DNA from: Parcubacteria group bacterium Gr01-1014_31
GTDB lineage: Bacteria > Patescibacteriota > Patescibacteriia > Buchananbacterales > GWA2-38-13
DNA: 64,000 bases
Assembly: GCA_007376135.1 (NCBI GenBank)
Contig: VMFR01000002.1
Span: forward strand, 92,870-156,869
Direction of reading: 5' to 3'
Positions 1 through 19,431 of this stretch are shown piece by piece. The notes beneath the pieces are model-generated. The model was not told where the DNA came from, ran no database searches, and was given only the letters and a program-made list of their open reading frames with translations. Each line of letters starts with the position of its first letter. Position 1 is the stretch's first letter. Position numbers and translations under genes: made by a program.

Positions 1-86
1 ATCCACCAACGACTTGCCGTCGATTTTGGTGATATCAATGTGCTCAACGGGCTTGGCGAGCAACTCCTTTTTCGTGGGCTTGGGCA
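1..86 (-). CDS. partial hypothetical protein (N-terminus only; gene continues past window start)
   Basis: Reverse complement begins ATG at 84-86 and reads MPKPTKKELLAKPVEHIDITKIDGKSLVD. GC is host-like, unlike the adjacent low-GC island. No recognisable family from this fragment. Confidence 0.3.
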
Positions 87-115
87 TAAGAAATACTGTT
101 ATCTAGGCGTCATTG

Positions 116-619
116 TTATAATTCTTTTAATAAATTACAACCACGGATACGCCACCACATCGCCTCGTCACTTACATCAAAAACATCGGCCAAACTCTTC
201 ACGTTCTTTAACCCATCCCGAATTTCTCCTTTCAATAACCCTAAAGGCATTAACAGCTCGGCGGCGAATTGATTTGCCTCAATTTCTTCTGGTTTTTGAC
301 TAGTTAAATCAAAAGGTGAATCACCGGTAGTATGCCCCATCATAAAATGCCCAATCTCATGGGCTACTGTGAAACGTTGACGGTGCCGATGCTGATTTTG
401 ATTATATCCAATCGTAATATTCTCTCCTTGGGTTAGTTGCATACCATCGGTGTCTTTACCAAAATCCCACGGGCAAATGGATAAATCGGATGTCTTTTTT
501 AAATATTCAACAATATCCCTTATCCTAATCGGTGGTCTTGTAACTCCAGCGTTGGCTAAAAGTCGCCTAGCAACTTTCCTTGCACTACCAACCCTAGGGT
601 TACCATCAACTTCGCTCAT
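116..619 (-). CDS. ImmA/IrrE family metallo-endopeptidase (COG2856-like)
   Basis: 167 aa with zinc-peptidase motif HEIGHFMMGH. Its start overlaps the stop of the upstream XRE-HTH gene by 14 nt, the typical repressor/anti-repressor pair arrangement. Low GC. Confidence 0.75.
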   Translation of the reverse strand: MSEVDGNPRVGSARKVARRLLANAGVTRPPIRIRDIVEYLKKTSDLSICPWDFGKDTDGMQLTQGENITIGYNQNQHRHRQRFTVAHEIGHFMMGHTTGDSPFDLTSQKPEEIEANQFAAELLMPLGLLKGEIRDGLKNVKSLADVFDVSDEAMWWRIRGCNLLKEL

Positions 620-971
620 GCTTCTTTTTCTTCACAAAGTCGATAAACCGAAGAATCTCCTCCTGATCCTGCTTAGAAAGATTCTTATCTGCACGTAAGG
701 CGAAATTAATATCTTGTTTCTCCTCCAAGCCCAAGAAAAATTTAATATCACGGTGTAAAAAATTGGAAATCTCTTCCAAATCCTCAGCGCGTACCTTTCT
801 TTCACCGGCTTCAATTAATGAAATTGCTGTGGCCGACTCAAATCCAATCACTTCTGCCAGGTCTTTCTGCGATTTTCCGGCAGATTCACGCGCCTCCTTT
901 ATTTTTGAGCCTATAAATTTATTTTTGTCGTCATGATTTTTCATATCAACAGTATGCCCCTCCTCAATCAT
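606..971 (-). CDS. XRE-family helix-turn-helix transcriptional regulator
   Basis: 121 aa. HTH_XRE-like segment KIKEARESAGKSQKDLAEVIGFESATAISLIEAGERK. Co-oriented with and overlapping the ImmA-like gene. Low GC. Confidence 0.75.
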   Translation of the reverse strand: MIEEGHTVDMKNHDDKNKFIGSKIKEARESAGKSQKDLAEVIGFESATAISLIEAGERKVRAEDLEEISNFLHRDIKFFLGLEEKQDINFALRADKNLSKQDQEEILRFIDFVKKKKHERS

Positions 972-1040
972 TCTGGCAAGGCATGGCTGCCAAAACGATT
1001 TGACAGGTTTATTTCAATTTGATAATATAAAAATGCCAAA

Positions 1041-1418
1041 GTGGAAATCTGCAATAAAGGTCGACTGATGAATACTTTGTGCAAGCAAAAACTAATCCAG
1101 TCAAGTCCTATGGTACACAAATACCAAGGCCCATTCCTATACAACGATGAGGTAATTAGCTCTTGGAATTCGAACGCAATCGGCGTCTATTACTGCGGCT
1201 ATCTAAACAGTCGCGAGGTGCTGATTACTCTCTACGTTGGTAAGGGAGCGGGCGAGGGAGGTATTCGTAATCGCCTTCTTGAACACCTACGGAATGAATA
1301 CTGGCCGGATGTTACCCATTTCGGTTACTGCGTCTGCGATACCAAGGAAGATGCCAATAATTTCGAGGCAGTCGAAATTGCGCGTCTAAAACCCAAATAC
1401 AACGTTCAAGGGAAATGA
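1041..1418 (+). CDS. GIY-YIG nuclease domain protein (stand-alone)
   Basis: 125 aa. GIY-like GVYYCGY, YIG-like LYVGKG, conserved Arg IRNRLLEHL, downstream Glu in EAVEIARL. About 40% GC in a 65% GC context. Confidence 0.5.
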   Translation: MEICNKGRLMNTLCKQKLIQSSPMVHKYQGPFLYNDEVISSWNSNAIGVYYCGYLNSREVLITLYVGKGAGEGGIRNRLLEHLRNEYWPDVTHFGYCVCDTKEDANNFEAVEIARLKPKYNVQGK

Positions 1419-1452
1419 AGTGAAACCAACATAAAATACGTTGAATGACAAC

Positions 1453-1480
1453 GGGGGCTAGCTACAACTGGCCCCCTTAA
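1453..1480. terminator. bidirectional rho-independent-type hairpin between GIY-YIG gene and greA
   Basis: GGGGGCTAGCTACAACTGGCCCCC stem-loop followed by TTAATAATTT. Confidence 0.4.
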
Positions 1481-1977
1481 TAATTTAGGCTCACCACCCT
1501 ACACCCCACCCGCTTGCCTGCCAACTGGATTTCCACGGTGTCGCCGACTTGACAGCCCATCAGCGCGGCGCCGACGGGAGATTTGTGCGAGATGACGCCA
1601 GAGGTAGGGTCGGTTTCCGATGACCCCAGAATGGTGTAGGTTTTTTGCTTGCCGTTTATTTCAACGGTCACCGTGCTGCCCAGTTGCACGACCCCGGATT
1701 TTACCGGCTGGATGATGACGATGTGCTTCAGGTATTCCGTCAGCTCGGTGATGCGGTCGTTGAGGTGGCGCAACCGGCCCTTGGCAATGGAGTAGGCCGC
1801 GTTTTCGGAAAAATCCCCCATCTCCGCCAGCCGTTTTACTTCCAAAATGGCGCGGGGCTGCGTCACCGACTTCAACCGGGCAAGCTCCTGTTTGAGCTCG
1901 TCAAGCTTCGCGGCCGTCAGGTTGGGGTCGCTTGGCAAATTGGTGTACTTGCCGGGTTTGCGGATGGGAACGCGCAT
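1477..1977 (-). CDS. greA: transcription elongation factor GreA
   Basis: 166 aa. N-terminal coiled-coil LTAAKLDELKQELARLKSV..RLAEMGDFSENAAY and C-terminal FKBP-like domain typical of GreA. Confidence 0.85.
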   Translation of the reverse strand: MRVPIRKPGKYTNLPSDPNLTAAKLDELKQELARLKSVTQPRAILEVKRLAEMGDFSENAAYSIAKGRLRHLNDRITELTEYLKHIVIIQPVKSGVVQLGSTVTVEINGKQKTYTILGSSETDPTSGVISHKSPVGAALMGCQVGDTVEIQLAGKRVGCRVVSLNY

Positions 1978-3614: not shown

Positions 3615-3800
3615 TTACTTAGACGCGTATTTTTCAGGATGCAGCGTAAACTCCTGCTTACAATCCTCGGAGCAGAACGCATAGATTTTGCCTTCGTGTG
3701 AGAGCGTGATGGCGCCGTTTGCGGACATGCCGCAGACCGGGTCGTTGCCGGCTCCCTGCATCGGCGCGGCTTGGAACTTCTTGAACAGGTTGCGGAACAT
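3615..3800 (-). CDS. YHS/TRASH-domain metal-binding protein
   Basis: 61 aa with DPVCGM...YAFCSEDC. The cysteine pattern is characteristic of YHS copper-binding domains. Confidence 0.65.
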   Translation of the reverse strand: MFRNLFKKFQAAPMQGAGNDPVCGMSANGAITLSHEGKIYAFCSEDCKQEFTLHPEKYASK

Positions 3801-3814
3801 AATAATTAAAAAGA

Positions 3815-4051
3815 TTAAAAATGAGGATTATGTGGCGATTCGTCCCGGCCATGATGGCCCTGTCCGCCGCCGTGCTGCCGGTGCATAAAGATATGCAGGA
3901 GCGGACACAATAGAAGGACGACATAGGGAATGACGGAAACGAGGTGCGTCGTATGATCCTGCAGCAGAAATACGAGGCCAATGACACCAATGGCGGCAAT
4001 GCCGATCCAGACCGGCCGGGAGAACAACCCGATGCGTTCGCTGCTACCCAT
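3815..4051 (-). CDS. small membrane protein, DUF2933-like (common in copper/heavy-metal loci)
   Basis: 78 aa from MGSSERIGLF. One TM segment followed by a His/Gly-rich tail HRQHGGGQGHHGRD. Start ATG complement at 4049-4051. Confidence 0.4.
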   Translation of the reverse strand: MGSSERIGLFSRPVWIGIAAIGVIGLVFLLQDHTTHLVSVIPYVVLLLCPLLHIFMHRQHGGGQGHHGRDESPHNPHF

Positions 4052-4062
4052 GGGAAAAAGGG

Positions 4063-4560
4063 TTATTGCCCTACCCCGGCACCGAAGTGAGTGTGAACAC
4101 CGCCAATCATTTGCCGCACGCACCATTGCGCGTACATCTTGCCAAACAACCGTCCGAGCCACGCGTTCTTCGCGGGCAGGTCGTAGTCAATGAACACGCG
4201 CAGTGTTGCACTAGTTCCCTGCGGCCGGATCTCAAAACCCATCCGGTAATCGCCGACCACCAACAGCCGCGGCGTGCCGACCGTCTCCCAGGTTTTTGCG
4301 CGGGGCGGATCGCGGCGCATGACCACTTCGTGCAGGGACAATGACAGCCCGAGCACACGGCCGTGCATCCGGATATGCGAGCCTACCTTCTGGCCCCGTC
4401 CTTCGTCCAGCACCACCTCCATGCGACCGCCACCCATCATCCAGGAGGACTTGTTCATGTGCGAGGAAAAACTGGCGTGGTCGTCGGTGTACGCAAACAC
4501 CTGCGCCGGGAGCGCGGCGACGGAGATACTGGCTTCGTAATGTCGTTTGGCTTGGGACAT
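4063..4560 (-). CDS. SRPBCC (Bet v1/START-like polyketide-cyclase fold) family protein
   Basis: 165 aa. Overall pattern resembles the SRPBCC ligand-binding superfamily. Judgement by fold-family resemblance only. Confidence 0.45.
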   Translation of the reverse strand: MSQAKRHYEASISVAALPAQVFAYTDDHASFSSHMNKSSWMMGGGRMEVVLDEGRGQKVGSHIRMHGRVLGLSLSLHEVVMRRDPPRAKTWETVGTPRLLVVGDYRMGFEIRPQGTSATLRVFIDYDLPAKNAWLGRLFGKMYAQWCVRQMIGGVHTHFGAGVGQ

Positions 4561-4565
4561 ACGAG

Positions 4566-6662
4566 CTACAGGTGCAACCGCGATTCAACGCGCTTCAGGA
4601 GCACCGCGTTGGTGGCCACAATGATGGAGGAGGCGGACATCAGGAGCGCCGAGACCTCTGGCCGCAACGACCAACCCAGGGAACTATAGAATACCCCGGC
4701 GGCCACGGGAATGGCCAGCAGGTTGTACACGGCGGCCCAGAACAGGTTCTGCTTCATCTTCGTGACCGTGGCCTTGGAAAGCCGGATCGCAGCCACCAGG
4801 TCGTAAGGGTCGGACTTCATCAGTACGATGTTACCCGTCTCAATGGCGACGTCCGTACCGGCGCCGATGGCGATGCCAATATCCGACTGGGCCAACGCAG
4901 GGGCGTCGTTGATGCCATCGCCGACCATCGCGACCCGCTTGCCCTCATCCTGGAGTTTTTTGACGTACTTGGCCTTGTCTTCGGGCAGCACCTCGGCAAA
5001 GTAGCGATCAATCCCCAGGTCCGCGGAGATCGCTTTGGCCACTTGCTCATGGTCGCCCGTGATCATGGCAACCTCCATGCCGAGCTCCTTGAGTTTTTGG
5101 ATGGTCTTTTTGGCGGTCGGCCGCACGGTATCCGCCACGCCGATCACGCCGGCGACCTGCCCGTCAATGGCGACGATGCTGATGGTGTTCCCCGTGCCGA
5201 GGAGTCGGCCGAGTTCCTGCTGCAACGGCGAAAGGTCAATGTGGTGCTGCCGCATCAGGCGTTCAGTCCCCGCAATGACCGTTTTTCCGTCTGCCACCGC
5301 GCGGACGCCGTGGCCGCCAATGGACTCGAACTGTGCGACGCTTTTTTCGATGGAGATGTTGCGCGTTTTGGCCTCCTCGATGATAGCGAGGCTGATGGGA
5401 TGGTTGGAGTTGCGCTCCACGGCGGCCGTGTACGCGAGCACGTCCTCCACAGTGAAGGAGGAAGCCGCCACCACTTCGGTAACCCTGGGTTTGCCTTCGG
5501 TCAGCGTGCCGGTTTTATCCAGCACGATGGCATTGAGCCGCGAGGTGTTCTCCAGCGTGGCCGCGTCTTTGATCAGGATATTATGCTTGGCGCCCAAGCC
5601 GGTGCCGACCGCCACGGCCGTCGGGGTGGCCAGGCCGAGGGCGTCGGGGCACGCAATGACGATCGCCGAAACGGCGAACGTCAGGGCCGTCAGCAGGCCC
5701 GCCCCCGCGACGAAGTACCAGCCTACGAACGCCGCAGCGCCGGCGCCGAGCGCGACCACTACCAGCACCGCGGCGGCCTTATCGGCGATGCGCTGGCCGG
5801 GAGCTTTGGAATTCTGGGCGGTCTCGACCATTTTAATGATCTGCGCCAGCACGGTTTCCGACCCGACCTTCGTCGCCCTGAACTTCGCCGCCCCCGTCAG
5901 ATTGACCGACCCGCCGATGACCTTGGCGCCGGTCTTTTTCGCGACGGGAATGGACTCCCCCGTGACCAGCGACTCATCAATGGACGTTTCCCCCTCAATA
6001 ATTTCACCATCCACGGGCACTTTGTCGCCGGGCCGGAGCACGACCACATCGCCCCGCAGGATCTCGGAACTCGGTATGGTGACTTCCTGGCCATGACGGA
6101 TAACCTTTGCCTGGGGCGGCACGAGGTCAAAGAGCGCGCGCAAGGCGTCCGAAGTACCGCGCCTCGATTTCATTTCCATCCAATGGCCGAAGAGCACGAA
6201 CGTGACCAACAGCGCCGCTGCCTCATAGAAGGTCTCGCTCTCCGGCCGGATGACGGTGAGCAGTACGCTGAAGAGGTAGGCGGCCAGCACGCCGGTCGCG
6301 ATCAGGACCGACATGTTCAGCTTCCGGGCTTTGAGCGCGTGGTAGGTGCCGGTGATGAAGATCGAACCGGTCCAGAATACTACCGGCGTGGTGAGGAGGA
6401 ACAGGAGCCAGCTGACCGGGAGAGGGGTTGGGAGATCGAGTTTGAAGTAGTTGAGTCCCACCGGAGAGTAAAGAAAGATCGGCACCGACAGGATAAAGGA
6501 GATCCAAAACCGCCGGCGCATGTCCGCTTCCATCGCTTTCGCCATCTGCGGATTGGTCATGGCCGCGTCATGATCGGCATGGCTCAGGTGGCGGACGTCG
6601 GGAGCGGGCGTGGCGCTCGCAGGAGCTGCCTGGTGATGTTCGTGCGGGTCGGAGTGGTGCAT
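4566..6662 (-). CDS. heavy-metal (probably copper) translocating P1B-type ATPase with His-rich N-terminus
   Basis: 698 aa. DKTGTLT phosphorylation site, GDGINDAPAL hinge, TGES actuator-type region, eight predicted TM helices. N-terminus MHHSDPHEHHQ resembles CopB-type exporters. The TM6 motif reads CPD rather than the usual CPC/CPH. Confidence 0.9.
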   Translation of the reverse strand: MHHSDPHEHHQAAPASATPAPDVRHLSHADHDAAMTNPQMAKAMEADMRRRFWISFILSVPIFLYSPVGLNYFKLDLPTPLPVSWLLFLLTTPVVFWTGSIFITGTYHALKARKLNMSVLIATGVLAAYLFSVLLTVIRPESETFYEAAALLVTFVLFGHWMEMKSRRGTSDALRALFDLVPPQAKVIRHGQEVTIPSSEILRGDVVVLRPGDKVPVDGEIIEGETSIDESLVTGESIPVAKKTGAKVIGGSVNLTGAAKFRATKVGSETVLAQIIKMVETAQNSKAPGQRIADKAAAVLVVVALGAGAAAFVGWYFVAGAGLLTALTFAVSAIVIACPDALGLATPTAVAVGTGLGAKHNILIKDAATLENTSRLNAIVLDKTGTLTEGKPRVTEVVAASSFTVEDVLAYTAAVERNSNHPISLAIIEEAKTRNISIEKSVAQFESIGGHGVRAVADGKTVIAGTERLMRQHHIDLSPLQQELGRLLGTGNTISIVAIDGQVAGVIGVADTVRPTAKKTIQKLKELGMEVAMITGDHEQVAKAISADLGIDRYFAEVLPEDKAKYVKKLQDEGKRVAMVGDGINDAPALAQSDIGIAIGAGTDVAIETGNIVLMKSDPYDLVAAIRLSKATVTKMKQNLFWAAVYNLLAIPVAAGVFYSSLGWSLRPEVSALLMSASSIIVATNAVLLKRVESRLHL

Positions 6663-6670
6663 ACGGGAAG

Positions 6671-7411
6671 TTAATGAAAGAGGTATTGATGGAATAATTG
6701 TGCCTGGTCGACGATCACCTGGAGCACTATTTTTTCCTCACCGGATACGGCTCCGCCGGTCGGCAACAGGAGCACGCCGCGTTCCGGCGCTTGCGCATCT
6801 GAACTCCCGATAATATCGATGTTTGCGGGTGCAAGAGTATTCCCGGCGGCAAGGGCCTGCAGGATCGCTTTGTTGCTCAGGCCATTCGTTTGCCCGGGCC
6901 ACGCTTCCTCGGAATGAAAAAACTCATGGGTGGTCCGGGCGTTCCGCGGGTTGATGAAACGGAAAAGCCCCCACTTGGTTTTCGCGATCGATGTGGCCGC
7001 AATGCCGAGGAGCTGTTCAAATATGGCGTTCTTTTGCCGGTGCGTTATCTTTTCCCGGCGCAACAAGGTACTGGTCAGCGTCTTGAGCAGCGGGAGGCGG
7101 ACGTTGACCAGACCAATGTACTTCGCTGCGTCAAGGAGCCGGCCGTCCAGCTGCTGTAAATGTTCTTGCAACCGGATCTTTTCCCGCTCACGTTTTTTAA
7201 TTTCATTAACATGCATCTCATACGTGAGCCACGCCACGCCCATAACCAGCACCGTAACAATATTTTGGATGAAGGGCGATGACAATGAGAACAGGTGCCC
7301 GCGAATAATGTGCGGCTGAACGATGAGCACCGCGAACAGAACGAAGTAAATGATCTTTACAATACGGGACATATCGGAATGCGAACACGCATGGTAGCAG
7401 ATATTGGACAC
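6671..7411 (-). CDS. hypothetical membrane-anchored protein
   Basis: 246 aa. Two N-terminal TM helices, then a coiled-coil (NEIKKREREKIRLQEHLQQL) and a soluble domain. No recognisable family. The start may be the internal MSRIVK. Confidence 0.35.
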   Translation of the reverse strand: MSNICYHACSHSDMSRIVKIIYFVLFAVLIVQPHIIRGHLFSLSSPFIQNIVTVLVMGVAWLTYEMHVNEIKKREREKIRLQEHLQQLDGRLLDAAKYIGLVNVRLPLLKTLTSTLLRREKITHRQKNAIFEQLLGIAATSIAKTKWGLFRFINPRNARTTHEFFHSEEAWPGQTNGLSNKAILQALAAGNTLAPANIDIIGSSDAQAPERGVLLLPTGGAVSGEEKIVLQVIVDQAQLFHQYLFH

Positions 7412-7626
7412 TAGCGGCCTTCACGCTCCAACTGCCGGCGGTACAGCGCGCAAATGCCGGCCGAAATCGCGATCAGCTGAAGGATGGCGGCGTCGGCGAA
7501 GAGATGGAACTGCGAAAAACCGAACGCGGTCCCGCCATCCCCCGCCAGCCAGGCCCCGACGAGCGCCGATACGCCCCAGATACCCGCAACGATGGATACT
7601 CCGTGCATCATGGTGGATTTTTTCAT
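7411..7626 (-). CDS. small two-TM membrane protein, unknown function
   Basis: 71 aa with two hydrophobic helices. Lies in the copper locus between csoR and the P-type ATPase. Confidence 0.3.
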   Translation of the reverse strand: MKKSTMMHGVSIVAGIWGVSALVGAWLAGDGGTAFGFSQFHLFADAAILQLIAISAGICALYRRQLEREGR

Positions 7627-7637
7627 AGGTGGTTCAA

Positions 7638-7910
7638 TTATTTATTCGACAGCGTGTACACCCGGATCAACTCCTTGATGGCCTTCTCGTCGCCACCGGC
7701 TTTCTGCATCTGCTGCTTCACGTGCGAACGGAGATGGTTCTCCAGGAGAAAACGGTCAAGACTCTTGAGCGACCGCTGGATCGCGAGGGACTGCTCCAAG
7801 AGGATGGGGCAATACTCTTCGCTTTCGATCGCCTTCACCAGGCCGTCGAGCTGCCCCCGGATGATCTTCGCCCGGTGGATGGCCCGTGTTTTGAGCTTTT
7901 GATCCAGCAT
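7638..7910 (-). CDS. csoR: CsoR/RcnR-family copper-sensing transcriptional repressor
   Basis: KTRAIHRAKIIRGQLDGLVKAIESEEYC...HLRSH follows the CsoR pattern (RGHLDG-like helix and Cys/His ligands). Start taken at MLDQ (ATG complement 7908-7910); the ORF could extend to 7943. Confidence 0.75.
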   Translation of the reverse strand: MLDQKLKTRAIHRAKIIRGQLDGLVKAIESEEYCPILLEQSLAIQRSLKSLDRFLLENHLRSHVKQQMQKAGGDEKAIKELIRVYTLSNK

Positions 7911-7950
7911 AAAGCTTGTGGGGATATGGATAAGACGCGACAACCTGCCT

Positions 7951-7967
7951 ATAGGGTATACCCCTAT
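7951..7967. promoter_or_regulatory. candidate CsoR operator (GC-cored pseudo-palindrome) upstream of csoR
   Basis: ATAGGGTATACCCCTAT is a near-perfect palindrome of the TACCC..GGGTA type used by CsoR repressors. It lies about 40 nt upstream of the csoR start on the minus strand. Confidence 0.35.
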
Positions 7968-8064
7968 ATCCTATTTGTCAATCCCCCGCCCGATTCTCCC
8001 CCGGTCAAAACGTGAATCAATAACCCTGCGGCAGAAACCGCAGGGTTATTAAAGCGGAACCGTT

Positions 8065-8847
8065 CTATTTCACGTACTGGTCGATGGTCGTTTTAACCTG
8101 CTCGAACGGCTGCGCACCGGAGATAATGCGGGTTTCGCCGCTGCGGGTGAGGAGTACCGTACCCGGGGTGCCGGTCACGCCGGCCTGCTGGCCTTCGGTC
8201 ATATCCTGCTGGACCTTCTGGGCGTACTTGCCGCTGTCCAGGCACGACTTGAACTTGGCCTCGTTCAAACCGATCTCCTTGGCTAACGGCACCAAGTCAG
8301 CTAACGGAAACCCCGTACCATTCGAAGTCGTGCGCTCGAACATGGTATCAAGGTATTTCCAGAACGCGACATTGCCGCCCAGCTCACCCGCGCACTCGGA
8401 GGCTTCCGCTTCCTTCTGCGCGTTGGCGTGGAACGAGAGCGGGAAATGGCGGTATACCCAGGCGACCTTGGTGCCGTAGGTCTGCACGACCTGCTCCATC
8501 GTCGGATGGAACCGTTTGCAGAATGGGCACTCGATGTCGGAGTACTCGATGAGGAAGATCTCGGCCTTAGAGAAATCACCCTTGATGTGGTCGGTCTTGG
8601 AAACCGGCTTGACCTGGCCGGCCGTGGGCTCGGTCGGGTCGTTGGCCGACGGCAACTGCGCCCCGGCGACCTGGCCGCCCGTCGACGGCTTGGCCGCGAC
8701 CACGTCGTCATCGCCGCCGCCCAACCCTTGGCCCTTCAGCACCAAGGGCAGCGTGATGACAAACCCGATGGCCATCACGGCCAGGATGCCACCGACAAAG
8801 CCGGACCAGAACGCCGACTTCGGAGGCAGATTATTGATCACCTGCAT
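8065..8847 (-). CDS. DsbA/BdbD-family thiol-disulfide oxidoreductase, membrane-anchored
   Basis: 260 aa. N-terminal TM, Gly/Asp-rich linker, thioredoxin-fold domain with CPFC active site. Confidence 0.75.
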   Translation of the reverse strand: MQVINNLPPKSAFWSGFVGGILAVMAIGFVITLPLVLKGQGLGGGDDDVVAAKPSTGGQVAGAQLPSANDPTEPTAGQVKPVSKTDHIKGDFSKAEIFLIEYSDIECPFCKRFHPTMEQVVQTYGTKVAWVYRHFPLSFHANAQKEAEASECAGELGGNVAFWKYLDTMFERTTSNGTGFPLADLVPLAKEIGLNEAKFKSCLDSGKYAQKVQQDMTEGQQAGVTGTPGTVLLTRSGETRIISGAQPFEQVKTTIDQYVK

Positions 8848-8947
8848 AAACGGTGTGCGTTAATGATTATGAATAACGATTGACGAGCGAACGAGATTCG
8901 CTGTATGCGGAAAAGGCAGATCACCGACGCGCGAGATCACCCAAACA

Positions 8948-9973
8948 TCAACAACTAAGCTGGTGGCAGACGCGCTGGTTACTGCCGCCCGGAATATGAA
9001 TCTGGGGTTTTGGCGACTGCAGCAACAAAGCAGGCGTTTGATGGTCGGGCAGAGCTAAGGCCAGGCCAGGACCCGTAGGGCAATGGACTGGCGAGCCCAC
9101 ACGGGCCGATGCGGGCGGCGTCAATAAAAATACGAAGAGCATCATCGCGACTGCGGTTGCGATGATGTGCACGAACGGCACGGGGGCAGAAGAAAAGCGT
9201 TGACCGGCAAGCGTGGCCACGCGGACGGAGATCAACCCACGTTGGGCGAATGCAACTGCCACCCCGCGGGGAACAGCGGCGGCGGAAAGCTGATAAAGCG
9301 CTCGTGCCAGCGCAGCTCGGCCACCGGGTTGATGCAGCGCAGCGTTATCCGCAGCTATTTCCTGCGCAACGGTATACCGCTGCCGCAACACGCCCACCAA
9401 GGGCAGAAAGAATAACGCCTGCTGCAGGGCCGTCAGAAGCGCCATGCGCATCGGATCCCGGCGCCGACGATGGTGATCTTCGTGGGCAAGCACTGCACTA
9501 AGTTCCGGCTCTTGTAACCGCGCTACCGTAGTGGTCGAAAGATATATTCTTGGATGGAAAAAACCGGTACAAAAGCACAGCGGCCGAGGTGAATCCACCA
9601 CCACCAGCGAGTCGGCGTTCAACCGCAACCGCCTTCGCAGCTGATGTATCGGCGTCGGCTCGATGTCAGTGATCAGGTCGGTCAGCGAGCGCCGCAAACG
9701 GTTCGTCGCCAGAACCTGCCAGAGCAGCGACCCAATACATACTACCGCGAGCATGGTTGGGATACTCAACGCCAGCAATAATTGGATCGGCATACCGACA
9801 AACAGCGAACCGAGTACCTCGGTGCAACGGGCACGCACCGCCATGACCACCTGCTGAACCTCGAACGATCGCAGGGCGCGCAGGAGTACTTGCCCCAGCA
9901 CGACAAAGACGCCAGTCCCTATGGCGAGCGCGGCTAAAAATGTTCCATCGTACCACTGGCGGAATCGCGTCAT
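8948..9973 (-). CDS. BlaR1/MecR1-like M56 family membrane metalloprotease (signal transducer), lacking a penicillin-binding sensor domain
   Basis: 341 aa. Four TM helices and HEDHH zinc motif in a cytoplasmic loop, as in M56 peptidases. Too short for a C-terminal PBP-type sensor. C-terminus is Cys/His-containing (HCPTGP...VCHQLSC). Directly downstream of the BlaI-family repressor gene. Confidence 0.65.
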   Translation of the reverse strand: MTRFRQWYDGTFLAALAIGTGVFVVLGQVLLRALRSFEVQQVVMAVRARCTEVLGSLFVGMPIQLLLALSIPTMLAVVCIGSLLWQVLATNRLRRSLTDLITDIEPTPIHQLRRRLRLNADSLVVVDSPRPLCFCTGFFHPRIYLSTTTVARLQEPELSAVLAHEDHHRRRRDPMRMALLTALQQALFFLPLVGVLRQRYTVAQEIAADNAALHQPGGRAALARALYQLSAAAVPRGVAVAFAQRGLISVRVATLAGQRFSSAPVPFVHIIATAVAMMLFVFLLTPPASARVGSPVHCPTGPGLALALPDHQTPALLLQSPKPQIHIPGGSNQRVCHQLSC

Positions 9974-9982
9974 ACCACAAGA

Positions 9983-10378
9983 TTATTCCCCTTTCGCGTG
10001 CTTTGCAGAACGGAGCTGATGCAGCAACCGCTTAAGCGCTTTGCGGTCGGTGCGCTGCAGCTCTTCGGCAAAACACGCGACGGCCACCGGACCGAACTGG
10101 CGTCTCATCTGCCCAAAAAACGTTTCTGCCGCCGACCGAAAAAACTGCTCTGGCGTAAAAACGGCTTGATAGTGGTGCACCTGCCCAGCCGCGCGTACGA
10201 GCAATCCTTTGACGGCCAGCCGATTGATAACGGTCAGGACCGTCGTATAGGCCAGATCACGGTTGCGCTGCAGGAGCCGCACGACCTCGCCGACCGGCAA
10301 TGGTTTTTGGTACGACCAAAAAATAGCCATCACTCGATGTTCGAGTTCACCCAGGAGTTGGCGCGGAATTCGTCTCAC
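9983..10378 (-). CDS. BlaI/MecI/CopY-family winged-helix transcriptional repressor
   Basis: 131 aa. N-terminal MAIFW...PLPVGEVVRLL...YTTVLTVINRLAVKGLL matches the Penicillinase_R winged helix. No C-terminal CxCx4CxC copper site. Confidence 0.8.
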   Translation of the reverse strand: MRRIPRQLLGELEHRVMAIFWSYQKPLPVGEVVRLLQRNRDLAYTTVLTVINRLAVKGLLVRAAGQVHHYQAVFTPEQFFRSAAETFFGQMRRQFGPVAVACFAEELQRTDRKALKRLLHQLRSAKHAKGE

Positions 10379-10381
10379 AAA

Positions 10382-10429
10382 GAATTACTACAGATTGTAG
10401 TTAGTGTTTACTACAATCTGTAGTAATTC
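10382..10429. promoter_or_regulatory. BlaI/CopY-type operator: 20-bp perfect inverted repeat containing TACAnnnTGTA boxes
   Basis: GAATTACTACAGATTGTAGT .. 8 nt .. ACTACAATCTGTAGTAATTC. Each arm itself contains ACTACAgatTGTAGT. Sits immediately upstream of the repressor gene start, consistent with autoregulation. Confidence 0.6.
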
Positions 10430-10607
10430 TTACAAGGAGTCAAGCAAAGTTATCCACACGAAATCTTGATGCCAAGGCCGCGCACCAGTTCTCGCCGTAA
10501 TTCACCCAACCACAACACAATCGGATGCCAATGGCACAGAATGTTTCTCTACCCGCCCGATTTCCTGATGCAAATTTGCAGGTGATCCCATCCTCCCGCG
10601 CGCCGTT

Positions 10608-10641
10608 AAAAAAAAACGAGAGGAAAATTCCTCTCGTTTTT
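10608..10641. terminator. bidirectional rho-independent terminator
   Basis: A9-CGAGAGGAAAATTCCTCTCG-T5: GC stem flanked by an A-run and a T-run. Confidence 0.55.
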
Positions 10642-10689
10642 CATCCCTTCTCTCGAAAGTTCGAAATCTCGTTTCCTGGTTGAACGCCG

Positions 10690-10944
10690 CTACGACAGGT
10701 GCTTGGAGACAAGCTTGGTCATTTCGAACATGCTGACGGTTGCCTGGCCGCCAAAGACTGCCTTGAGCTTCTCATCCGCGTTGATGTTGCGCTTGTTCTG
10801 GGCATCCTGCAGGTTGTTTTTCTTGATGTAAACCCACAGCTGTTTAGCAACTTCCGACCGGGGCATCGGCCCCGGGCCGATAACGGCTGCCAGCTCGGCG
10901 CTGACCTGCATTGGCTTCATGAACGCGGAATTGGCCTTTGGCAT
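10690..10944 (-). CDS. SWIB/MDM2-domain protein
   Basis: 84 aa from MPKANSAFMKPMQVSAELAAVIG...LWVYIKKNNLQD...KLKAVFGG, matching the SWIB/MDM2 fold consensus. The longer ORF to 11070 has no support. Confidence 0.55.
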   Translation of the reverse strand: MPKANSAFMKPMQVSAELAAVIGPGPMPRSEVAKQLWVYIKKNNLQDAQNKRNINADEKLKAVFGGQATVSMFEMTKLVSKHLS

Positions 10945-11015
10945 ACGGTTTTTATTGGTTAGTTGTTTAATGGTCTTTACTATAACACTATTTCCCTCCC
11001 AAGCGGAGGGGGCGC

Positions 11016-11453
11016 TTATTTCTTGCTGGTGCAGTTGAACATCCACTGGATGCCATACTTGTCGGTGCACGAACCGAAGTAATCGCCCCAGAACATCTCC
11101 TGCAGCTGCATGCCTACCTTGCCGCCCTTGGAGAGCGCCACAAACAAGCGATCCGTTTCGCCCCGTGTGTCGGGCTCCAGGTTGATGTGCATATTGTTCC
11201 CCGGGGTAACCGTGAAGCCCATGGACTCGGGCGCGTCGGTGCCCATTAGGACATGCCCGCCAAGGATTTTGATCTCCACATGCATGACCAGATTTTTGTC
11301 CGCCGCCGCCATCGGGGGCGTCCCTGGTTGCGGGGGGACCTCGGAGAACCGATGGATGCCATTGGTAAACTCGCCGCCGAACACCGATTTATAAAAATTG
11401 AACGCTTCCTCGGTCGTGCGAGGAAAATTCAGATACGTGCTGACTCGGGCCAT
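11016..11453 (-). CDS. VOC-family (PhnB/glyoxalase-like) protein
   Basis: 145 aa. YLNF...EEAFNFYKSVFGG start typical of PhnB-like 3-demethylubiquinone methyltransferase-fold proteins. Confidence 0.65.
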   Translation of the reverse strand: MARVSTYLNFPRTTEEAFNFYKSVFGGEFTNGIHRFSEVPPQPGTPPMAAADKNLVMHVEIKILGGHVLMGTDAPESMGFTVTPGNNMHINLEPDTRGETDRLFVALSKGGKVGMQLQEMFWGDYFGSCTDKYGIQWMFNCTSKK

Positions 11454-11539
11454 ACTGATGATAGTTACTTGGATAATTTAGATCTCCCTCGCGAGCGGAG
11501 AGGGAGGCTCAAAAAATCATATAGGAGTAACCCCCAGGG

Positions 11540-11624
11540 CGGAGAGGGAGGGATTCGAACCCTCGAACCCTTGCGGGTTACCGCATTTCGAGTGCGGCGC
11601 ACTAGTCCACTATGCGACCTCTCC
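11540..11624 (-). tRNA. tRNA-Ser (anticodon CGA)
   Basis: Minus-strand GGAGAGGTCGCATAGTGGACTAGTGCGCCGCACTCGAAATGCGGTAACCCGCAAGGGTTCGAGGGTTCGAATCCCTCCCTCTCCG. 7-bp acceptor stem, anticodon loop CUCGAAA, long variable arm, GTTCGAATC T-loop. CCA not encoded. Confidence 0.85.
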
Positions 11625-11942
11625 GCTCTGGGGGTTAAAAAACATTTGGACGACCGGATATACCAGCACAAGTATGCGCGAATGGCATTACCCGCGGACC
11701 CCGCACCAATTTTGCACCAGGGAGACGGCCCCGCCATTCGGCGGGGTAAACTCCGCGCTGCGCCCTAAACGGGGAGGGCCTATTCGTCCAGCCCATTCCG
11801 CGAATGAGCTGGATTATTTCCGTACCTTTCTTTATTGTCCCACCCGCACACGTGCGGGCGTTCTGGAGGACGGAAAGTAAAATTATGCTATACTGAAAAA
11901 AGCTAAAAGTCAACGAAAAAAGGCTGAACCTCCTTATTTCTT

Positions 11943-12821
11943 ATGCCCTCTGTCCGCAAGCTCGTCATCCCCGTGGCGGGTCTCGGCACCCGCTTTCTCC
12001 CGGCCACCAAAGCGCAACCCAAGGAAATGCTGCCGCTCCTGGACAAGCCCATCATCCAGTACATCGTGGAAGAGGCAGTGCGCTCCGGCATCACCGACAT
12101 CATCCTGGTGACCGGCAAGACCAAGCGCGCCATTGAGGACCACTTCGACCGCGACGAGGAACTGGTCAACTACCTCAAGACCCACAACAAGGCCGAGGCG
12201 TCCGAGAATATCAGAAAGATATCCGAGATGGCCAATTTCATCTTCGTGCGCCAGAAGGGGCCGTACGGCAACGGCACGCCCGTGCTCAACGCGCGGCACA
12301 TCATCGGCGACGAGCCGTTCGCGGTGGTCTGGGGCGACGACATTTGGCGCTGCCCGACGGACCCGCACGTGGCGCAGCTGGTGTCCGTCTACGAGCGCTA
12401 CCACGACCCGGTCATCACGCTGAAGGAAACCGACGACGAGGGCGCGCGCCGCTACGGCATCGTGGAAGGCCCCGAGGTGCAGCCGGGCGTGTACCAGCTT
12501 AACCAGATCATGGAAAAGCCCGGGCCGGACAAAACGCGCAGCCGCCTGGCGTCGCACGGCGGGTACGTTTTCACCCCCGACATCTTTGACGCGCTGGCCG
12601 AGACCGCGCTGGGCCGCGACGGCGAGCTGTGGCTGGTGGACGCCATCGCCAACCTCCTGAAGCGCCGCACCATCTACGGCAAGGTCATCGAAGGCGAATT
12701 CTACGACACCGGCAACAAGATCGGCTGGCTGAAGGCCAACGTCGAGTTCGCGTTGCGCGATGCCCACGTCGGCCCGGCATTTGAAGCCCATCTGAAACGC
12801 CGCATATGCGATACCAAGTAA
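11943..12821 (+). CDS. galU: UTP--glucose-1-phosphate uridylyltransferase
   Basis: 292 aa. VIPVAGLGTRFLPATKAQPKEMLP N-terminal nucleotidyltransferase motif and overall GalU architecture. Confidence 0.9.
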   Translation: MPSVRKLVIPVAGLGTRFLPATKAQPKEMLPLLDKPIIQYIVEEAVRSGITDIILVTGKTKRAIEDHFDRDEELVNYLKTHNKAEASENIRKISEMANFIFVRQKGPYGNGTPVLNARHIIGDEPFAVVWGDDIWRCPTDPHVAQLVSVYERYHDPVITLKETDDEGARRYGIVEGPEVQPGVYQLNQIMEKPGPDKTRSRLASHGGYVFTPDIFDALAETALGRDGELWLVDAIANLLKRRTIYGKVIEGEFYDTGNKIGWLKANVEFALRDAHVGPAFEAHLKRRICDTK

Positions 12822-18066: not shown

Positions 18067-18648
18067 CTACTTGGGCTTTACGCACGCCGCCCACTTCACG
18101 GTGCGCACCACGGTGGTTTCGTTGACCGTCTCGAAAACCACGTTCCCGCTGGCAGTCTCGATGAACCGGAAAAGATATTTATACCCCTCCGGTAACGAAC
18201 AGGCGACCGTGGTCGGCTCCACCTTGGGATTCGGCGCAGGAGCGAGGTTGACCACTTCCACGGTTGGACCGTTCAAGTTGATCCGACCTCGGTGATCGAC
18301 CTGGAAAACCTGGCAGACCAGGGCAAGACCGGTGAAATTACTGATGCCCCCATCCACCAAAATCATGGTGGGCTCCTCAGGCTTGGTGGCCTTGATCTGC
18401 TCGAGCTTGCGCTCGGCCAAATCGACGTCGCCCTCCTTGGCGTTGATGACCGCAGTTCGCGCGGCCGTCAGTTGGGAATTGTACTCCATCAACTCCGCCG
18501 CACGCATCGCCGTGATCGGGTCCGTTTCGCCAAACCACGCGTGAACCACGATCTTGGGATCGCGCTTGTCCTCCAACAACACATCGGAGGAACGGCAGCC
18601 GAACGCAGCGGCGAGCGGGAGGACAACCAACATCATCCGGTACGACAT
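18067..18648 (-). CDS. hypothetical lipoprotein
   Basis: 193 aa from MSYRMMLVVLPLAAAFGC (lipobox-like AFGC). No family recognised. The longer ORF to 18783 lacks a signal-peptide context. ATG complement at 18646-18648. Confidence 0.45.
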   Translation of the reverse strand: MSYRMMLVVLPLAAAFGCRSSDVLLEDKRDPKIVVHAWFGETDPITAMRAAELMEYNSQLTAARTAVINAKEGDVDLAERKLEQIKATKPEEPTMILVDGGISNFTGLALVCQVFQVDHRGRINLNGPTVEVVNLAPAPNPKVEPTTVACSLPEGYKYLFRFIETASGNVVFETVNETTVVRTVKWAACVKPK

Positions 18649-18915
18649 GTAAAGACTCCTGCCAGAAACTGGCGTTGTGGGACGCATTGTCCAAGGTTCA
18701 ACCGTATTAAGCCCCGGTGAAGGCTCCACAGCAGTGGAGAAAAGCCAAACATTGGCTTTTGACTTAAGATGTAATGATACCACAAATTGAAACTATTGTC
18801 AATATAATTAGCAATATTTGGCTTATTTTAGATGATTATAATCAATACTATATTACGCCCGCCAATGCTAATTCCCCTTGTTTCAGCCAACCCGGGAATC
18901 CTGTATAATGAACGT

Positions 18916-19025
18916 GGTATGCCCGGTAGTACAATGGATATACTGGGCAGAAGAGCGGTGCGGCAGTAATTAATTACGCTGGAACGCGAACACCAGTAAA
19001 CAACCATTGTCCTGCCGGGTATGCC
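18916..19025 (+). promoter_or_regulatory. conserved inverted-repeat 5' leader element (copy C); 3' arm contains the start codon of pilin paralog 9
   Basis: 5' arm GGTATGCCCGGTAGTACAATGG (18916-18937) and 3' arm CCATTGTCCTGCCGGGTATGCC (19004-19025) form a 22-bp stem (with G-U pairs) around an AT-rich core. An extended -10 TGTATAAT (18902-18909) is 6 nt upstream. The same architecture occurs at 55591-55691 and 60110-60224. Confidence 0.5.
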
Positions 19026-19431
19026 CATCGCAGAGCGCGTCGCCGTCAAACTCGCCCAGCTCTCCCCCGATATTCGGGAGTCGCAAGGGCCGCTGTGGCG
19101 CGCGATAAAGAACCAGTACACCCCGTTCAACCTGTTCTTCGGCCCGCCCTCCGACCCGCGCGTCGTGGCGGCGCTGGTCATCAAGGGGTTCATGTCGCTG
19201 CTGGGCATCTTGTTTTTGCTCTACGTGGTGTACGCGGGGTTCATGTGGATGACGGCCAACGGCGACGAGGAAAGGATCCGCAAGGCGAAATCCACCATCA
19301 CCACCGGCGCATTCGGGGTGCTGGTCATCCTGGCGGCGTACTCCATCGCCCAGTTCATCACCACGGCGTTCGGCTGCGCGACCGCCACCTACGGCGAGTG
19401 GTGCCTTTTCTTCAACAACCTGACGTGGTAG
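19021..19431 (+). CDS. divergent VirB2/TrbC-like pilin family protein without N-terminal signal peptide; paralog 9
   Basis: 136 aa. The conserved hairpin LLYVVYAGFMWMTANGDEERIRKAKSTITTGAFGVLVILAAYSIA is present, but the N-terminus MPIAERVAVKLAQLSPDIRES is not a signal peptide. C-terminal CATATYGEWC. Confidence 0.55.
   Translation: MPIAERVAVKLAQLSPDIRESQGPLWRAIKNQYTPFNLFFGPPSDPRVVAALVIKGFMSLLGILFLLYVVYAGFMWMTANGDEERIRKAKSTITTGAFGVLVILAAYSIAQFITTAFGCATATYGEWCLFFNNLTW

Follow-up and report, generated by a model that had tools for sequence, protein, structure and literature searches.

The beginning of a 64,000-nucleotide stretch of DNA (hereafter the window), taken from the published metagenome-assembled genome 'Parcubacteria group bacterium Gr01-1014_31', raises a simple question: what is a low-GC island that encodes an XRE-family repressor, an ImmA-type protease and a GIY-YIG nuclease doing between two GC-rich host genes, greA and a deoxyhypusine-synthase-like gene (DS)? 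In this study, we found that the best explanation, to which we give a probability of about 60%, is a complete, horizontally acquired three-gene cassette. It would act as an orphan, self-contained switch of the ImmR/ImmA type (CapH/CapP-like) that releases the nuclease after DNA damage. As part of this explanation, the cassette circulates on mobile DNA of low-GC Patescibacteria and now stands alone in the variable slot between greA and DS of a Parcubacterium with 62% GC. The island and its genes are as follows.

88–1486, no strand: the whole foreign cassette, delimited by composition and cassette features.
94–1506: the stretch without homology to relatives, from the comparison with relatives.
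606–944, minus strand: XRE-family helix-turn-helix (HTH) repressor of 112 amino acids from the ATG at 944 (the reading frame is open to 971), assigned by Pfam HTH_3.
116–619, minus strand: short ImmA-type M78 zinc metallopeptidase of 167 amino acids, assigned by Pfam PF06114.
1110–1418, plus strand: predicted minimal stand-alone GIY-YIG nuclease of 102 amino acids, from alignment, profile and an AlphaFold2 model.

The GC content of positions 88–1476 was 0.419, compared with 0.619 ± 0.030 and a minimum of 0.521 in all other windows of 1389 bp (z = -6.6). The earlier note on this DNA had described a drop to about 40% from a baseline of 65%; the drop holds at 41.9%, and the baseline is corrected to about 62%. 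The GC content at third codon positions (GC3) was 0.35–0.51 in the three island genes, compared with 0.76–0.79 in greA and in the multicopper oxidase gene that follows it. The tetranucleotide L1 distance of the island to the rest of the window was 0.68, compared with 0.275 ± 0.04. All three measures set the island apart. Two contigs that overlap the window (L001 and L002; L numbers denote contigs and loci) were 100% identical to it wherever they overlapped. L002 spans the entire island with both flanks and L001 spans most of it, and in both the GC content returns to 55–63% left of the island. Related cassettes match the composition of their surroundings, at 30–47% GC, and only those of the window, L102/L104 and L129 lie next to clearly GC-richer DNA. 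The horizontal acquisition that the note had proposed is supported by the foreign composition and by the different low-GC inserts that two relatives (L016 and L017) carry in the same slot; the colinear cassettes in genomes of 30–47% GC agree with it. Its observation that no integrase, tRNA gene or direct repeat flanks the island also stood. There was no tRNA gene within 10 kb, there were no flanking direct or att-like repeats around the island, and the window held no hallmark of a prophage or integrative element (recombinase, packaging or structural genes, att repeats).

The XRE and ImmA reading frames overlap by 14 nucleotides, which indicates one operon. Pfam matched the XRE protein to HTH_3 (PF01381, E = 4.7e-12) and the protease to PF06114 (E = 4.6e-19; 68.9 bits against a cut-off of 22), and the earlier assignment of an HTH-XRE gene overlapping an ImmA/IrrE gene was right. 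Its XRE length of 121 amino acids was not borne out by the alignment, which gives 112. The longer form would begin at an ATG at 971, and we rejected it, as this codon sits in a 27-nucleotide insertion that is unique to the window in an alignment with 13 other cassettes. The XRE protein was 65% identical to that of L010. The ImmA protein has the features of the M78 family, with HEIGH at residues 87–91 and EIEANQF at residues 112–118, and the HExxH motif was kept in 31 of the 31 unique ImmA homologues from cassettes. PADLOC matched the XRE protein to capH over the whole profile length (E = 2.9e-10) and the ImmA protein to capP (E = 2.7e-29) over profile positions 4–150 of 242 only. No GAF domain was present in ImmA, which ends after the peptidase domain. 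Since only the peptidase part of CapP is matched and the GAF domain is missing, the protease is ImmA-like and not CapP-like, and its trigger is uncertain. The layout is that of ImmR/ImmA: the protease shares an operon with the XRE gene and faces a conserved divergent promoter with palindromes. The strict features of CapH/CapP were not found, there being no three-domain CapP and no CBASS (an antiphage signalling system based on cyclic oligonucleotides) or other known defence operon downstream. The sole gene downstream in the switch is the GIY-YIG nuclease. Median ratios of nonsynonymous to synonymous substitution (dN/dS) were 0.09 for ImmA, 0.03 for XRE and 0.08 for the nuclease; these were taken between cassette copies, and dS is saturated between the window and the other cassettes. 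These results indicate that all three genes are under strong purifying selection among cassette copies.

The divergent gene had been read as a 125-amino-acid protein with a GIY-YIG domain only. The domain was upheld by profile, model and residues, and the length was revised to 102 amino acids from the starts of the homologues: the 125-residue reading, open from a GTG at 1041, was rejected because all homologues start at an ATG aligned to 1110. The key residues of the window nuclease are GVY27, Y42-V-G44, R55, H59, H70, E86 and N98. Across 29 aligned homologues of about 102 amino acids, the GVY...YxG motif, R55, H59, H70, E86 and N98 were invariant, and in 69 unique homologues from 92 loci Y27, Y42, G44, R55, H59, E86 and N98 were 100% conserved. 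The motif residues are conserved on alignment, as a genuine GIY-YIG protein would have them. R55, E86 and N98 stand at the positions of the superfamily's catalytic Arg, metal-binding Glu and conserved Asn, which in I-TevI are R27, E75 and N90.

Pfam gave no hit on the window nuclease, so that the gathering threshold of PF01541 was not reached. Among the 29 homologues, there were 10 weak matches to PF01541 (best E = 0.0033) and 13 weak matches to DUF123. A single-sequence NCBIfam search gave nothing significant (best UvrC, E = 0.068). As the single-sequence searches were insignificant, a profile of the family and a structure model were required to identify the protein. The family profile searched against PDB matched the UvrC GIY-YIG domain 1yd6 (E = 7e-5), and the spacing of the residues parallels that in UvrC. 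The AlphaFold2 model had a pLDDT of 93.1. In Foldseek against PDB, the top nine matches were UvrC GIY-YIG domains (probability 1.0, TM-score 0.62–0.73) and R.Eco29kI came 10th; against BFVD, the matches were small phage GIY-YIG endonucleases (probability 0.99–1.0). Profile, model and conserved residues together confirm the predicted protein as a divergent member of the GIY-YIG superfamily and thereby as a putative nuclease of 102 amino acids. The catalytic domain accounts for all 102 residues, and no DNA-binding or target-recognition domain was found. In a search of 1.84 billion proteins, 147 cluster representatives matched at E ≤ 1e-3, which marks a small family. It had no member in IMG/VR, which gave one weak, irrelevant hit, none in GenBank phages by DNA or protein, and none in PLSDB plasmids by protein.

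As the closest matches in both sequence and structure are the N-terminal domains of UvrC, the protein could serve in repair, as a nuclease that is induced by damage, is carried on mobile DNA and helps, like Cho, in nucleotide excision repair or in the processing of lesions. The linkage to damage-responsive repressors of the LexA-like and ImmA types would suit such a helper. However, the UvrB-binding and C-terminal regions of UvrC and Cho are missing, and the tiny family occurs in variable or mobile contexts rather than in core genomes. We regard a repair nuclease as extremely improbable.

The regulation that we propose depends on the DNA between and behind the genes, where the following elements were recognised.

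1000–1028, plus strand: nuclease promoter, TTGACA, 17 nucleotides and TAATAT with an extended TG, from a consensus scan.
951–979, minus strand: candidate XRE-ImmA promoter, TTGCCA (979–974), 17 nucleotides and CATACT (956–951), 9 of 12 in the consensus scan.
960–986, no strand: GC-rich insertion of 27 nucleotides (63% GC, like the host), a gap in 13 of the 13 other cassettes.
987–1025, no strand: candidate operators O2 (987–1006) and O1 (1011–1025), from conserved columns.
1035–1109, plus strand: conserved 5' untranslated region (5'UTR) of the nuclease gene, from RNAalifold.
1453–1486, plus strand: intrinsic terminator, a conserved hairpin of GGGGGCTAG, a loop and CTGGCCCCC (1453–1476) with a T/A tail (1477–1486).

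The nuclease promoter was the best sigma-70-type match in the region (10 of 12), and its -35 hexamer was invariant in 20 loci. O1, ATTTCAATTTGATAA, matches the family palindrome TTATCAAnTTGATAA and sits in the spacer of this promoter, and O2 is a related imperfect inverted repeat that overlaps the -35 hexamer. The operator columns were conserved or invariant in 20 cassettes and in a 14-cassette alignment, and the XRE protein would bind to them. In the other cassettes, the XRE promoter shares its -35 region back to back with the nuclease promoter. In the window, the 27-nucleotide insertion separates the XRE -10 hexamer from this ancestral shared -35 and operator region; it creates the in-frame ATG at 971 and also a new -35-like TTGCCA at the correct spacing of 17 nucleotides from CATACT. 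The -10 hexamer CATACT lies 6 nucleotides from the ATG at 944, which suggests a leaderless mRNA, and the same layout of -10, 6 nucleotides and ATG is common to other cassettes.

In the 5'UTR, RNAalifold paired positions 1037–1043 with 1073–1079 in a stem of 7 pairs, 3 of them with compensatory changes. The motif TAAAGGTCG was invariant in the XRE-type cassettes, and its form in the window is TAAAGGTCGA at 1055–1064. A search of Rfam with window positions 1–1600 gave nothing at E ≤ 1. The terminator, a hairpin with a T run behind it, was conserved in 15 cassettes, and 7 of the 14 pairs in the hairpin showed compensatory changes. The intergenic region was conserved to the same degree as the genes. 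With a promoter, a 5'UTR and a terminator of its own, the nuclease gene is probably transcribed alone as a monocistronic unit.

We collected 94 loci encoding homologues of the nuclease. Positions 128–1422 of the window aligned unbroken, at about 68% nucleotide identity, with eight of them (L107, L113, L099, L129, L098, L101, L103 and L100), and this colinearity ended at the outer ends of the ImmA and nuclease genes. We found no conserved fourth gene beyond ImmA, the reading frames there being unrelated or spurious. Cassettes that were about 90% identical to each other (L099/L100/L107 and L109/L112) carried different restriction-modification (R-M) units, and their homology ended 72–134 nucleotides past the nuclease stop codon, just beyond the terminator. 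Because colinearity stops at the outer gene ends and near-identical copies carry different R-M units, the cassette is, as judged from its sequence, a complete and bounded unit with its own promoters, operators and terminator, and not a random scrap of prophage.

In the 94 loci, the partner facing the nuclease head to head was an XRE and ImmA pair in 40, a LexA-like S24 repressor in 21 and an HTH protein with SocA/Panacea in 8; an XRE gene was the only partner in 3 further loci, whose contigs are cut. In the XRE-type loci, the partner usually lay 90–170 bp from the nuclease gene. The repressor partner is always of a cleavable or stress-linked type. That the alternative partner is a LexA-like self-cleaving repressor strengthens damage-linked transcriptional release as a conserved feature.

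Upstream of the nuclease in S24-type loci, an RGTCG motif was seen 40–90 nucleotides before the ATG in 12 of the 17 loci (chance about 7%), for example in L124, L125, L141, L157 and L158. Some copies of RGTCG lie in hairpin loops, and only the stem of the XRE type shows some covariation. A hairpin around RGTCG as a feature of all upstream regions was rejected, since the mean stem was 4.9 compared with 4.4 in shuffled sequence, which is not better.

PADLOC models of RmrA matched both regulators (E down to 8e-12 and 2.8e-10 for XRE and ImmA), and so did the NCBIfam family 'spr1629 family repressor/antitoxin'. These matches, together with the subset of nuclease homologues that faces an HTH-Panacea antitoxin-like protein, would suit a toxin-antitoxin or addiction module of the RosmerTA or spr1629 type, in which the nuclease is the toxin and the XRE protein and M78 protease form the antitoxin. 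However, the NCBIfam and RmrA matches were far under full-length or curated scores; NF052239 gave 33.6 bits against a cut-off of 335, which is not a full-length antitoxin match. The regulators are two separate proteins divergent from the nuclease, so that the toxin would not be in the same operon. Moreover, the same nuclease is paired with LexA-like S24 repressors in 21 loci, and this pairing fits transcriptional control and not neutralisation by protein binding. We consider such a module very improbable.

Of the 33 XRE/ImmA loci whose flanks were long enough, about 27 had a DNA methyltransferase as the next or next-but-one gene, and in every case it lay on the side of the nuclease. The type II R-M units directly after the terminator were of at least seven kinds (ScaI-like, TdeIII, DpnII-like, EcoRI-like, MunI, NgoPII, and a D12 methyltransferase with an unknown partner), and adjacent units often ended in a small C-protein-like HTH gene. 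A Shedu gene lay beside ImmA in one cassette locus, and solitary nuclease homologues adjoined type I R-M, Mrr-like and FokI-like genes. Neighbours of these kinds suggest that the cassette serves in defence or in conflicts among mobile elements, and a housekeeping repair role looks less likely. We rejected the nuclease as the methylation-protected restriction half of a neighbouring methyltransferase, because near-identical nucleases stand beside methyltransferases of at least five families and at least six specificities. As a separate observation, some islands of cassette and R-M genes end next to tRNA genes (L102 4747–4822; L104 8444–8519 and 8843–8917; L100 4138–5017). These are tRNA-Lys, which is duplicated in L104, and an Ile/Met/Met/Asp cluster, and such a position is typical of integrative islands.

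The linkage to R-M genes also allows an explanation that we hold to be unlikely: a second-line, damage-triggered nuclease system of bacteria of the Candidate Phyla Radiation (CPR) that works with the R-M system after the terminator, or a nuclease that itself makes the junction at which R-M units are swapped. Restriction breaks or phage replication would give single-stranded DNA. This would lead ImmA to destroy the repressor, after which the GIY-YIG enzyme would complete the breakdown of the DNA. In the window, the system would exist in a stand-alone form. If true, this would be an undescribed defence or mobility module.

The two host genes that border the island were compared with those of relatives.

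1477–1977, minus strand: host greA, right flank, with Pfam GreA_GreB N- and C-terminal domains and NCBIfam GreA.
1–87, minus strand: host DS, left flank, which starts at 87 and runs off the window, identified through L001 and L002.

The NCBIfam GreA match had E = 7.7e-38 and 129.9 bits, under the curated model cut-off of 145. The full DS gene in L001 and L002 encodes 342 amino acids (Pfam PF01916) and is followed by CN_hydrolase and PAD_porph (agmatine-deiminase-family) genes at host GC. The DS protein was scanned against species-representative genomes, which gave three close relatives (L016, L017 and L018). In L016 (DS 93% identical), greA and DS are homologous to those of the window, and an unrelated segment of 874 bp lies between them (L016 4130–4982). 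This segment has 41.5% GC in a contig of 54.5% GC and holds a minus-strand reading frame of 184 amino acids that matched nothing in Pfam or PADLOC. On the DS side, the homology of L016 to the window ends at 93; on the greA side, it ends at 1507, which is 30 nucleotides ahead of the greA stop codon. In L017 (DS 91% identical), a gene for an AAA_14/DUF4143 ATPase of 490 amino acids lies upstream of DS and matched the PADLOC candidate PDC-S01 (E = 1e-47). This insert (358–1938) has 47.5% GC in a contig of 56.8% GC and is bracketed by a 235-bp duplicate of the DS 5' end (100–334 and 1933–2167), of which the upstream copy is 89.8% identical to the window DS. The duplicate looks like a footprint of an integration that carried a replacement gene start, or like an assembly chimera. 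L018 (DS 97% identical) is cut inside DS and is uninformative on the slot. No truly empty greA-DS allele was found among the relatives; those without the cassette hold other inserts, and none showed the same genes at this locus with host-like composition. No GIY-YIG nuclease of this kind was present in the other greA-DS inserts. Since L016 and L017 hold unrelated low-GC inserts in this slot, the greA-DS junction is a hot spot whose foreign genes differ from lineage to lineage.

A pattern of presence and absence at a conserved locus would be expected of a selfish mobility cassette. In such a cassette, the nuclease would act as a free-standing endonuclease of a homing or recombination-stimulating type, cutting close to its own locus, spreading the cassette and promoting the exchange of adjacent DNA. 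The sharp junction at which near-identical cassettes are joined to different R-M units, the position of the R-M genes always on the nuclease side, the structural resemblance to small phage GIY-YIG endonucleases and the duplicate around the L017 insert all agree with it. However, the nuclease has no DNA-binding domain that would give target specificity of the I-TevI type, and homing genes have no need of the repressor with which its gene is invariably paired. There was also no conserved target sequence at the junctions and no flanking repeat, and the inserts of the relatives lack such a nuclease. A cassette of this kind seems quite improbable. The earlier note had left a mobile remnant, a defence or addiction module and a homing-type gene as options. 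These are now narrowed to a complete, recurrent cassette whose relatives lie in terminase/recombinase elements and beside R-M units; a classical homing endonuclease is the least supported of the options, because a DNA-binding domain is absent and the gene is always partnered by a repressor.

At some loci, small elements begin with this same switch and nuclease, which are followed by a ParB-methyltransferase (N6/N4), TerS and TerL in L010, L152, L162 and L163 (XRE type) and in L003 and L170 (S24 type). The TerL protein matched phrog_38 (E = 1e-74), and a serine recombinase was found in L010, L003, L163 and L170. No capsid or portal gene was found within about 8 kb, so that these elements look more like satellites than like full prophages. 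Since they are headed by the same switch and nuclease, the cassette probably either originated from the induction switch of small terminase/recombinase elements or has this switch in common with them. The element in L010 spans 5072–12309, and a weak HNH-like gene and a large serine recombinase are also seen in some small elements. The recombinase of L175/L176 borders on ImmA, suggesting a permuted or circular form. We also noticed in the element of L003 a second, divergent GIY-YIG paralogue of 101 amino acids (4928–5233, minus strand) downstream of the S24 repressor, with a weak match to PF01541 (E = 8e-4) and 45% identity to the window nuclease over 64 amino acids.

The window holds no homologue of the recombinase, terminase or methyltransferase of these elements anywhere in its 64 kb. 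It is conceivable, if doubtful, that a small terminase/serine-recombinase element or a prophage lost its other genes by deletion and that its immunity end is left as an inert remnant, the present island. The full elements continue with the ParB-methyltransferase, TerS and TerL that are missing here, and in the window copy the promoter carries an insertion and the ribosome-binding site is weak. Such a remnant would persist only because it is recent, or by supplying transcription or termination signals to its neighbours. The layout could offer both signals: DS lies on the strand of ImmA and starts 28 nucleotides past its stop codon, no terminator separates the two, and the greA stop codon (1477–1479) and last codons fall within the terminator tail of the cassette. 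From the first of these, the polyamine-pathway operon downstream may now be transcribed from inside the island, and from the second, the cassette may influence the termination of greA. However, the three reading frames, the catalytic motifs, both promoters, the operators and the terminator are all intact, and the borders match those of the unit found at many loci that have neither terminase nor recombinase. It would be rare for a random deletion to spare precisely this recurrent unit, which speaks against a remnant.

For the self-contained damage switch that we prefer, the steps would be as follows. An XRE dimer on the operators would silence the nuclease promoter. The protease would be activated by DNA damage or by single-stranded DNA, as in phage attack or restriction. 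The protease would cut the repressor, and the nuclease would be made in a burst. These steps were inferred from ICEBs1 ImmR/ImmA, Deinococcus DdrO/IrrE and CBASS CapH/CapP.

Several points weigh against this switch. Binding, cleavage and induction are all proposed by analogy. The ImmA protein is without the linker and GAF part of CapP and IrrE, including the groove where CapP binds single-stranded DNA, and the activating signal may therefore differ; the ImmA of ICEBs1 depends on RecA or RapI. No PADLOC model matched the nuclease. The window copy has no adjacent R-M or methyltransferase gene, unlike about 27 of its 33 relatives. It is also the only copy with the 27-nucleotide insertion in the divergent promoter, and the AAGGAG ribosome-binding site that precedes the nuclease ATG in most relatives is missing from it; the copy may be expressed differently or not at all. 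Finally, the island is identical in contigs from two other samples, so that selection after the insertion is not measurable.

Patescibacteria have tiny genomes, and little is known of their mobile elements or defences. The parts of the cassette are familiar. Its bounded form, its restriction to uncultured Patescibacteria and its linkage to methyltransferase or R-M genes and to terminase elements are undescribed, as far as literature searches show. At least 40 loci hold this compact, bounded three-gene unit, which joins a known kind of damage-sensing switch to the smallest kind of GIY-YIG nuclease. If the proposed logic is true, it would be a simple candidate module for defence or conflict in CPR bacteria, a natural minimal circuit for an inducible nuclease, and a marker for variable hot spots in Patescibacteria genomes. 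For the window itself, the result is more modest: a genuine, recent-looking foreign insertion.

Some other regions also depart from host composition. Left of the window, past DS, L001 has low GC (43–49%) at 3700–4450 and 5500–5950 amid DNA of 55–65% GC, and 3700–4450 is a gap of 626 bp without a called gene between the CN_hydrolase and PAD_porph genes. Within the window, GC falls below 50% in only two other stretches, 10200–10800 and 18500–19100 (minimum about 0.48). The former adjoins genes for a BlaI-like repressor (9983–10378) and a BlaR1/M56-like protein (8948–9973) and, with a tetranucleotide distance of 0.46, is the second most atypical region.

The cassette can be compared with several known systems. 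In the ImmR/ImmA systems of ICEBs1 and phi105, a protease cleaves an HTH repressor after DNA damage (10.1101/2022.04.27.489752), and in Deinococcus and CBASS a protease likewise does so (10.1101/2022.04.27.489752; PMC13228613). The cassette shares with ImmR/ImmA of Bacillus subtilis ICEBs1 and phage phi105 a single operon for an XRE repressor and a short COG2856/M78 protease, which faces the promoter of the genes to be induced. The ImmA of ICEBs1 has about 169 amino acids, and that of the cassette has 167. Unlike those systems, the cassette has no integrase after ImmA, its first induced gene would be a GIY-YIG nuclease and not an excisionase, nothing further follows downstream in the window, and the sequence similarity is at the family level only.

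CapH/CapP and Deinococcus DdrO/IrrE gave the best PADLOC matches of the regulators, and they have in common with the proposed switch an HTH repressor that is cut by an HExxH protease to turn on a potentially toxic effector. CapP has three domains, a peptidase, an HTH-like linker and GAF (10.1101/2022.04.27.489752), whereas the window protease stops where its peptidase domain does, and its corresponding loop contains no cysteine. In place of a CBASS operon, the effector here is one nuclease of 102 amino acids.

For the nuclease, the N-terminal GIY-YIG domain of UvrC and E. coli Cho is the closest solved fold and profile match (1yd6, 1ycz) and has the catalytic Tyr, Arg, Glu and Asn set in common with it. 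The window protein is a bare domain, without the UvrB-binding region, the RNase H-like nuclease domain and the helix-hairpin-helix of those proteins. T4 EndoII, the I-TevI catalytic domain, the actinophage 'GIY-YIG endonucleases' and R.Eco29kI resemble it in fold, in small size and in being carried on mobile DNA; they differ in having 119–250 amino acids with extra DNA-recognition parts. RosmerTA, whose antitoxin RmrA is a fused XRE-M78 protein, shares with the cassette the two regulator domains, the PADLOC RmrA matches and the variable partner effectors. In the cassette, unlike in RosmerTA, the two domains are separate proteins, and the effector gene lies divergent from them under a repressible promoter.

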